Source of the DNA: Steroidobacteraceae bacterium
GTDB taxonomy: Bacteria; Pseudomonadota; Gammaproteobacteria; Steroidobacterales; Steroidobacteraceae
Length of the DNA: 64,000 nt
Direction of reading: 5' to 3'
Assembly (NCBI GenBank): GCA_035525785.1
Contig: DATLDQ010000033.1
Location: forward strand, 37,484-101,483
The notes under the pieces: model-generated
Seen by the model: only the letters and a program-made list of their open reading frames with translations
Database searches by the model: none
What the model was told of the DNA's origin: nothing
Part shown: in pieces, positions 39,370 to 39,882 of the stretch
Position numbering within the stretch: the first letter of the stretch is position 1
Layout: each line of letters starts with the position of its first letter
Program-made: the position numbers and the translations under genes

Positions 39370-39882
39370 TCAGTGCTTCTGCCGTTTGAGCCCTCGCAGG
39401 ATCTTCACATCCTGGCCGCCTTCCACGTTGATCGGTGAGCTGCGAGTGCAGCGGCCGAGCTCGATTGGCGTGCCATGCGAATAGATCAGCCATTCCTTCG
39501 AGAACTTCACCGGCAGCTGCTCCGCACCGGGTTTGGATGCGGCGTACATCCACGGCGGATCATTGGTGCTGCTCTGCCCGCAGGATCCGGCGCTCAACAC
39601 CTGGTACACGCGGATCACCTGGCCCACCTGAAGCGCACCTTTGAAGACCTCGATGATTTCGAACTGCGCGTCCTCGATGACATCGCGGCGATGACCGTCA
39701 GTGCGGGTTTCGGGCCTGAGCGCCGATCGCTTGAGCCGGGCGACGAATACTGCATCGGCATCGTCGAGTGACTGCCGAACCTGCTCCTCGGGCGTACCCG
39801 TGAGCTGCAGGCAGGAGCAAGCCTGCGCAGCCGGTGCTACCACACCAGCCACCGCCAATGCGATCAGGAGCCGGGCTTTCAT
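39370..39882 (-). CDS. secreted TIMP/NTR-like protein (mature N-terminus CSC)
   Basis: Signal peptide [21 protein letters not shown], then CSCLQL...[10 protein letters not shown]...FEIIEVFKG...SAGSCG...EWLIYS...LGRC. See findings. Confidence 0.6.
   Translation of the reverse strand: [170 protein letters not shown]

Follow-up and report, generated by a model that had tools for sequence, protein, structure and literature searches.

We analyzed a 64,000-nucleotide stretch of contig DATLDQ010000033.1 (hereafter the window) from the Steroidobacteraceae bacterium assembly GCA_035525785.1, in which a minus-strand open reading frame (ORF), lying between an FMN reductase gene and kdsA, codes for a probably exported protein related to the N-terminal domain of the animal tissue inhibitors of metalloproteinases (TIMPs; Table 1). 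The precursor has 170 residues and the predicted mature protein 149, with only four cysteines in all (C22, C24, C101 and C145); the codons of C101 and C145 were checked on the DNA, where each appears as gca on the plus strand. Based on the codon-position pattern of its G+C content (0.66, 0.46 and 0.75 at first, second and third positions) we regard the ORF as a real gene, and the plus-strand ORFs that overlap it as the usual shadows of high-GC sequence. This protein of a soil-type proteobacterium has 37 close homologs, one of which, from a Steroidobacteraceae metagenome-assembled genome (MAG), is 100% identical. An earlier note on this DNA had described a 170-residue ORF with AQA followed by CSC, and had listed a series of landmarks, compared with TIMP-2, as far as LGRC; the ORF is present exactly as described and every one of the quoted motifs is found in the protein.

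The wider family goes well beyond these close homologs: a profile search of 1.84 billion representatives clustered at 50% identity yielded at least 434 clusters with E <= 1e-3, of which 128 reach E <= 1e-10. From an alignment of 148 full-length members we built a broader profile (A2); a further homolog search with it, which covered 8000 candidates, brought hardly any additions. Alignment of A2 with human N-TIMP-2 by hhalign, with a TIMP-2 query verified as identical to chain A of 1BR9, returned a probability of 95.5-96.1% and E-values of 1.6e-8 to 3.7e-9 over 105 columns with a score of 55.4, while N-TIMP-1 was matched with a probability of 77% (E 2e-5, score 34.9). In control alignments, the best of 30 full shuffles scored 17.2 and the best of 30 shuffles in which the Cys positions were kept scored 16.1, with probabilities of at most 1.4%. 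As both sets of shuffles score far lower, the match is not explained by composition or by the spacing of the cysteines, and the similarity to TIMP greatly exceeds what chance would give. The column pairs recovered by hhalign are the same landmark pairs that had been listed in the earlier note, including the CSC start and LGRC/ITLC, and they align C22, C24, C101 and C145 with TIMP-2 C1, C3, C72 and C101, respectively. An hmmsearch with the same profile against 177,635 distinct Protein Data Bank (PDB) sequences placed four TIMP-2 entries at the top (E 0.0036), whereas searches of the PDB with the single sequence and with a narrower profile (A1) gave no TIMP match. The Pfam TIMP model (PF00965) matches the window protein at 11.6 bits (E 0.24; residues 21-103 against model positions 2-81) and 21 of the 148 members overall, among which one (P0135) alone rises above the gathering cut-off (29.3 against 23.1 bits, E 8.9e-7). 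The Pfam and profile comparison that the earlier note had proposed as a check, like the other proposed checks that were run, comes out in favor of its reading through the family profile and P0135, while the single protein falls short. We conclude that this bacterial family is a remote homolog of the TIMP N-domain. Pfam and NCBIfam searches of the window protein yielded nothing besides the weak TIMP match (with no match at all in NCBIfam), and hence no homology to the AprI/Inh inhibitors (I38); PADLOC, PHROGs and a tblastn search of the PLSDB plasmids likewise found nothing.

The conservation pattern at the N-terminus was assessed over 140 members for residues of the cleavage site and over all 148 for aligned columns. 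A Cys occupies mature position +1 in 141/148 members, so that in these the TIMP-like domain directly follows the predicted signal-peptidase cut. Ala is found at -3 in 101/140 and at -1 in 125/140, and 136/140 obey the (-3,-1) rule, which bears out the proposal that AQA|C is a signal peptidase (SPase) I-type site. The strict lipobox [LVI][ASTVI][GAS]C is found in 2/140 members and is absent from the window protein (A-Q-A-C), and at position -2 as many as 79 of the 140 have one of D/E/R/K/H/N/Q/W/F/Y, which a lipobox does not tolerate and SPase I does. Because A-x-A precedes the Cys across the family and the strict lipobox is rare, Cys22 is most likely a free N-terminus, as predicted after an SPase I cut. 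The residue at +2 is Ser in 107/140 and Thr in 8/140 (115/140 together), and that at +3 is Cys in 96/140. Further along the protein, V45 is retained in at least 90% of the members and the C101 column is Cys in 142/148. Four conserved cysteines are present in 97 members, and a further 40 have only the equivalents of C22 and C101 as conserved cysteines. In total, 100 members have C24 as well as C145, 41 have neither, and only 7 have one without the other (Fisher p = 1e-29). Because this Cys pair is gained or lost together, a C24-C145 disulfide is indicated, and C22-C101 follows by elimination; the pattern supports predicted equivalents of the TIMP C3-C99/101 and C1-C70/72 disulfides, respectively. 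The earlier idea that the four cysteines are placed to form two of the TIMP N-domain disulfides is thus supported by the hhalign pairing and by the joint loss of C24 and C145. Directly after Cys101 lies a family-specific motif, G-x-S-x-x-N-D-P-x-W, in which N107 is kept in 111/148, P109 in 122/148 and W111 in 103/148 members.

Structure prediction is in agreement with the profile comparisons. AlphaFold2 models of the precursor and of the mature protein, both computed without templates, have predicted local distance difference test (pLDDT) scores of 86.6 and 88.7 and predicted template modeling (pTM) scores of 0.78 and 0.83, respectively, and display a helix, long beta-hairpin strands, a barrel and a C-terminal helix. 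In Foldseek searches of the PDB, the six best matches to the precursor model and the five best to the mature one are all TIMP-2 or TIMP-1, with a probability of 1.00, E-values down to 1.8e-4, TMq up to 0.57 and 16-20% identity. They are followed by the NTR domains of PCOLCE, agrin NtA, complement C345C and meteorin; all the high-probability matches (0.9-1.0, TMq 0.40-0.57) are TIMP or NTR domains, with no generic OB folds among them. Hence, the structural match to TIMP/NTR anticipated in the earlier note is recovered, and the models assign the protein to the NTR/TIMP-like OB superfamily, as a predicted five-stranded OB barrel with N- and C-terminal helices. The hhalign alignment with TIMP-2 stops at SSPINV / IVPWDT, directly before the C-terminal helix of the window protein and likewise just short of the C-terminal helix of the TIMP N-domain. 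Against the viral models of BFVD, Foldseek found only generic OB-fold matches, at TM <=0.37; as these are weak and generic, they indicate no phage link.

Those members of the family that have a source name are all called "hypothetical protein". The named carriers comprise Steroidobacteraceae MAGs and cultured Roseateles/Pelomonas (Burkholderiales), among the latter Roseateles microcysteis (WP_334279898.1) and a Roseateles/Pelomonas strain (WP_394491269.1), and only three GTDB species representatives have the locus according to the A1 profile, all of them MAGs, such that the taxonomic breadth of the family is thinly sampled. Two distant members, P0051 (L014:494-4754, JGI 3300056874 Ga0566174_0033711) and P0135 (L017:743-3326), lie within rows of small ORFs that all point the same way, with attC-like repeats of 90-150 nucleotides between them; the repeats run from ...TAACAA... 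to ...GCGTTAGR, contain imperfect internal palindromes, and are near-identical to one another in L014 but diverse in L017. The same arrays carry genes for a ParE toxin and for DUF4279, SMI1/KNR4, DUF1493 and TspO proteins. By their sequence organization, both look like integron gene-cassette arrays. As the family occurs in such cassette arrays beside immunity-type genes, this context may point to a part in conflicts between microbes.

We also observed members with additional domains, among P0127/P0189 (HZT01748.1, Steroidobacteraceae), L019:8001-8726 and P0188. In one subfamily the TIMP-like N-domain is joined to the C-terminal domain of TonB (PF03544, 26.9 bits); this fusion has the N-terminus ACNGPPPP, lacks Cys3 and is annotated as "energy transducer TonB". 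Another member carries a CarboxypepD_reg-like domain next to the TIMP-like one. These domain architectures suggest that some members might dock on components of the outer membrane. At another locus (L012:5361-6615; Logan SRR26835165_155121) a repeat of about 30 nucleotides (CATCTTCATCACCTWKGGCACCCC) occurs upstream of three successive small ORFs, among them that of P0050, and is no obvious attC site.

The N-domains of vertebrate TIMP-1 to TIMP-4 (Pfam PF00965, MEROPS I35; structures 1BR9, 1UEA and 1BQQ) inhibit through their N-terminus: Cys1 chelates the catalytic zinc with its free alpha-amino group and its carbonyl, and the Ser/Thr at position 2 enters the S1' subsite. Since our computational analysis relates the protein to the TIMP N-domain by both sequence and fold, and since Cys1, Ser2 and both Cys pairs are conserved behind SPase I-type sites, we propose that the window protein is probably a Sec-exported, and likely periplasmic, single-domain homolog of the TIMP N-domain (NTR/OB) that would act as a metallopeptidase inhibitor. 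Its export to the periplasm, the cleavage before Cys22 and the formation of disulfides by a DsbA-type system are predicted from sequence features, and inhibition through chelation by Cys1 is suggested by homology. Under this proposal, SPase I would cut after A-Q-A to free the alpha-amino terminus of Cys22, and the oxidizing machinery of the periplasm would then form Cys22-Cys101 and Cys24-Cys145. These disulfides would fasten the N-terminal segment to the loop preceding Cys101 to generate a TIMP-type wedge, which might enter the active-site cleft of a zinc metallopeptidase, a metzincin being the likeliest, with the amino and carbonyl groups of Cys1 on the zinc and Ser23 directed into S1'. As there is no adjacent protease gene, the protein evolves fast and some of its relatives are borne on cassettes, we favor a role as a standing periplasmic guard, which would act against the organism's own exported metallopeptidases or those of competitors in the manner of AprI/Inh or ecotin, with no dedicated operon partner.

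Several observations weigh against an inhibitor of this type. The window protein on its own stays under the Pfam gathering cut-off for TIMP (11.6 against 23.1 bits). It lacks the third disulfide of the N-domain (C13-C124/126), with no Cys at the aligned positions, and also the C-terminal domain of the vertebrate TIMPs with its three further disulfides, the mature protein ending after one helix. A conserved insertion of about 17 residues (SSTNDPPW...) remains unaligned to both TIMP-2 and TIMP-1 in hhalign. The metzincin motif HExxHxxGxxH/D was found neither in the window nor in any of 20 further loci, and none of five sampled distant family members has an adjacent metalloprotease gene. Furthermore, the residues A-A-Q-A-C of the window protein fit a permissive PROSITE-style lipobox pattern, and many NTR modules are not inhibitors. 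The last point opens an alternative that we consider distinctly less probable than inhibition and yet serious, namely that this is a TIMP/NTR-fold periplasmic module that binds some other partner, such as an envelope protein, a glycan or a receptor, with the N-terminal Cys being of purely structural importance. Most NTR modules, including those of PCOLCE, agrin NtA, C345C and meteorin that rank right after the TIMPs in Foldseek, are non-inhibitory, and such a binder would be consistent with the lack of a nearby protease gene, with the insertion that has no counterpart in TIMP, and with the fusions to TonB C-terminal and CarboxypepD_reg-like domains, which suggest interactions in the envelope. 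However, non-inhibitory NTR domains are internal or C-terminal and lack a free Cys1, whereas here the domain begins at the cleavage site in nearly the whole family; moreover, the Ser/Thr that prevails at +2, corresponding to the S1' residue of TIMPs, is not needed for a purely structural role.

The N-terminal Cys also raises the question of acylation, as an invariant Cys right after the signal peptide is equally a hallmark of lipoproteins; in that case the Cys would be diacylglyceryl-modified and cut by SPase II, the OB fold would be anchored to the membrane and zinc chelation by Cys1 would be impossible. The earlier note's judgment that the lipobox fit is poor stands for the strict pattern but not for the permissive one, which is fitted by 28/140 members in addition to accommodating the window protein, and the only experimentally studied bacterial TIMP-like protein, Tim of Listeria, is a lipoprotein (PMC8235301). 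Against this, we note the near-absence of the strict lipobox, the preference for Ala rather than Leu at -3 and the residues tolerated at -2, along with the alignment of Cys22 with the disulfide-bonded Cys1 of TIMP; acylation would also leave the invariant Cys101 unpaired in the members with two cysteines. Consequently, we regard a lipoprotein as improbable. Even less credence attaches to a periplasmic protein that binds metal or has a redox function through reduced Cys-x-Cys thiols, for instance in the handling of copper or zinc, with the TIMP fold being incidental. While an N-terminal C-x-C is a plausible thiolate site and an FMN reductase adjoins the gene in this genome, in 40/148 members the second Cys of the C-x-C is missing along with Cys145, as expected of a disulfide pair rather than a metal site, most of the syntenic loci have no FMN reductase, and there are no His- or Met-rich motifs.

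Returning to the proposed metallopeptidase inhibitor, the window codes for two zincins, an M16 peptidase (HLFEH) and RseP (HEFGH), of which the former had been suggested in the earlier note as a candidate target. This M16 enzyme is an inverzincin (HxxEH) with an enclosed chamber and not a metzincin. We find no support for it as the cognate target, since it belongs to this class, is encoded five genes away, and is 77-88% conserved as opposed to 46-61% for the TIMP-like protein; the distant members of the family that were sampled have no M16 neighbor, such that common ancestry of the block is the only link between the two. Thus, the motif class, the contrast in conservation and the distant neighborhoods all leave the suggestion unsupported.

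Comparison with characterized systems helps to place the family. Like the vertebrate TIMPs, the window protein is predicted to be secreted and to begin with Cys-Ser/Thr-Cys, and it shares a strand of the "VIRAK" type (here ADAVFVARL), an E(I/V)xxFKG strand, the xxCG loop, predicted equivalents of C1-C70 and C3-C99, and a predicted OB/NTR barrel with N- and C-terminal helices. It differs from them in being bacterial, in its identity of about 16-20%, in lacking the third N-domain disulfide and the C-terminal domain, and in having the insertion of about 17 residues after the second Cys and a basic C-terminal tail. Single-domain TIMPs and netrin-domain proteins of invertebrates such as nematodes and hookworms similarly consist of only a secreted N-TIMP-like domain (PMC3679795); these are, however, metazoan, were recognized as related to TIMPs by sequence and in some cases lack the CxC (PMC3679795), in contrast to the bacterial family with its nearly invariant Cys1. 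The fold is also shared with PCOLCE, netrins, sFRPs, the C345C domains of C3/C4/C5, agrin NtA and meteorin, but non-inhibitory NTR modules are internal or C-terminal with no free Cys, unlike the bacterial domain, which begins at the signal-peptide cleavage site.

Among bacterial inhibitors, AprI/Inh (MEROPS I38) of Pseudomonas, Serratia and Erwinia are periplasmic inhibitors of serralysins, in which an N-terminal segment lies in the metzincin cleft with its amino group on the zinc. The resemblance of the window protein to these small, Sec-exported, periplasmic proteins of Gram-negative bacteria is a functional analogy only, since AprI/Inh are eight-stranded beta-barrels with a non-Cys N-terminus encoded beside protease and type I secretion genes, whereas no protease is adjacent here. 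The same analogy has been drawn for the bacterial TIMP-like protein Tim (LMRG_00714) of Listeria monocytogenes, the partner of the metzincin Mtz (PMC8235301). Tim is a lipoprotein with the lipobox LTAC, its TIMP-like part begins about 50 residues into the protein, and it is cleaved by the adjacent metzincin (PMC8235301). While both are bacterial with a predicted TIMP-like structure, the similarity of Tim to TIMPs is structural only, unlike that of the present family, which is related to TIMPs at the sequence level, has a predicted SPase I site ahead of Cys1 and, in the loci sampled, lies next to no protease gene. Ecotin and Ivy/PliC/MliC are stand-alone, constitutively placed periplasmic inhibitors that are not encoded beside the cognate enzyme and are thought to shield the envelope from foreign hydrolases. 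They have other folds and act on other classes of targets, and it is by analogy with them that a guard role is suggested here.

On the current view, the TIMP family arose in the eumetazoan ancestor (PMC10755359), and in the literature searched the papers on TIMP evolution restrict the family to animals. The study on Listeria Tim reported finding no earlier bacterial protein with a TIMP-like structure (PMC8235301), and the surveys of bacterial inhibitors in the literature searched do not mention I35. Automated Pfam TIMP matches exist for a few members, including a weak precomputed one for P0135, without comment. What is new is a bacterial single-domain TIMP homolog with two predicted disulfides and a family-specific insertion. 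At least 434 clusters retain the predicted features of a TIMP inhibitor, namely the free Cys1, the Ser/Thr2 and the C1 and C3 disulfides. As a tentative evolutionary scenario, to which we give less weight than to the inhibitor proposal itself, TIMPs might not be an animal invention: the bacterial family may already have possessed the N-TIMP fold, Cys1-x-Cys3 and the two ridge disulfides in the form of periplasmic or secreted shields against metzincins that were mobile as integron cassettes, with the eumetazoan module being derived from bacteria or going back to a much older common origin. If this were true, the eumetazoan origin (PMC10755359) would be overturned. The family itself would make the origin of the TIMP mechanism directly testable. 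It would also add a new class of bacterial metallopeptidase inhibitor, few of which are known and none characterized with this fold, and would offer small single-domain scaffolds with two disulfides for the engineering of metzincin inhibitors.

Table 1. Features of the TIMP-like gene and its flanks (positions in the window)
Feature	Position	Strand	Basis
TIMP/NTR-like precursor gene, complete, stop codon included	39370..39882	-	ORF list, sequence, homologs, AlphaFold2, Foldseek
Sec signal peptide, residues 1-21, ending A-Q-A; predicted SPase I site	39820..39882	-	Sequence and family pattern
Predicted mature N-terminus Cys22-Ser23-Cys24 (TIMP Cys1-Ser/Thr2-Cys3); proposed zinc-chelating, S1'-probing segment	39811..39819	-	hhalign, hmmsearch
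Residues 36-46, counterpart of TIMP strand-A motif	39745..39777	-	hhalign
Cys101, counterpart of TIMP-2 Cys72; predicted disulfide partner of Cys22	39580..39582	-	hhalign
Family motif, residues 102-111, opening the insertion of ~17 residues relative to TIMP-2, beside the inhibitory ridge	39550..39579	-	Family counts, hhalign
Cys145, counterpart of TIMP-2 Cys101; predicted disulfide partner of Cys24	39448..39450	-	hhalign, covariation
C-terminal basic alpha-helix, residues 151-169	39376..39432	-	DSSP on both AlphaFold2 models
87-nucleotide gap between TIMP-like gene and kdsA	39283..39369	-	Coordinates
FMN reductase, in variable slot between pyrG and TIMP-like gene	40096..40614	-	Pfam FMN_red, 96.8 bits; GTG start
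pyrG	40706-42454		Pfam
kdsA	38416-39282		Pfam
eno	37136-38419		Pfam
M16 peptidase, 917 residues, double	32961-35714	-	Pfam

Around the TIMP-like gene, Pfam matches give the order tilS, pyrG, FMN reductase, TIMP-like gene, kdsA, eno, NUDIX protein, M16 peptidase and ftsB, in line with the pyrG, FMN reductase, kdsA and eno flanks named in the earlier note. A scan of 39100-40800 for promoters and terminators found nothing; as there is no terminator-like site before kdsA, co-transcription of the TIMP-like gene with kdsA-eno is possible, if unproven. The order tilS-pyrG-[variable]-X-kdsA-eno-...-M16, with X being the TIMP-like gene, recurs in independent contigs (L001-L007, L009 and L011) whose X is 45-57% identical, and the pyrG-X-kdsA-eno synteny is conserved in six independent loci. 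In L001, L002, L005, L007, L009 and L011 the TIMP-like protein is 46-61% identical to the window copy, as against 86-98% for PyrG, KdsA and Eno and 77-88% for M16. The gene thus appears to code for a fast-evolving, predicted exported protein in a fixed housekeeping locus, with a conserved position that points to vertical inheritance in this Steroidobacteraceae lineage.

Its third-position G+C content (GC3) is 0.75 in comparison to 0.81-0.89 for the neighbors, with an overall G+C content like theirs, and most orthologs display a similar modest GC3 offset. Accordingly, the greater use of A/T-ending codons reported in the earlier note is real but modest, and mostly common to the orthologs, whereas the acquisition read from it finds no support in the sense of a recent arrival, the same slot being occupied in relatives down to 45% identity. 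Recent horizontal acquisition is not supported, given the neighbor-like G+C content, the modest GC3 offset and the conserved slot; judging from these sequence features, an acquisition, if any, can only be old.

The TIMP-like gene is the constant element between pyrG and kdsA, and its surroundings vary, mostly on the pyrG side. In this lineage, accessory genes gather at a hot spot in the interval (39883-40705 in the window, together with the equivalent slots elsewhere). L001 has an FMN reductase, an 85-residue ORF, a NUDIX gene and a 184-residue ORF there, L002-L004 have the TIMP-like gene only, and L005 has an AHSA1 gene; in L007 a methyltransferase and a GGACT gene are present, with extra genes after the TIMP-like gene. 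The FMN reductase is found in the window and L001 and is absent from L002-L007. In the ORF list of the window, a minus-strand frame at 40096-41340 fuses the FMN reductase with a 414-residue frame over the 3' end of pyrG, which is a high-GC artifact.

On the other side of the housekeeping genes, a lineage-specific block (32961-37158, minus strand), which the relatives have conserved, forms an insertion between eno and ftsB-ispD-ispF. Between its M16 gene and ftsB, the plus strand (32268-32933) codes for a Phd/YefM antitoxin (34.5 bits) and a PIN toxin (60.6 bits), a pair that occurs in the same place in L002 and L005. Besides the double M16 gene of 917 residues, the block comprises a small ORF at 36748-37158 with a signal-peptide-like start and no Pfam match, the NUDIX gene and a 146-residue ORF, which has no Pfam match in the window and a faint Glyoxalase match in L005.

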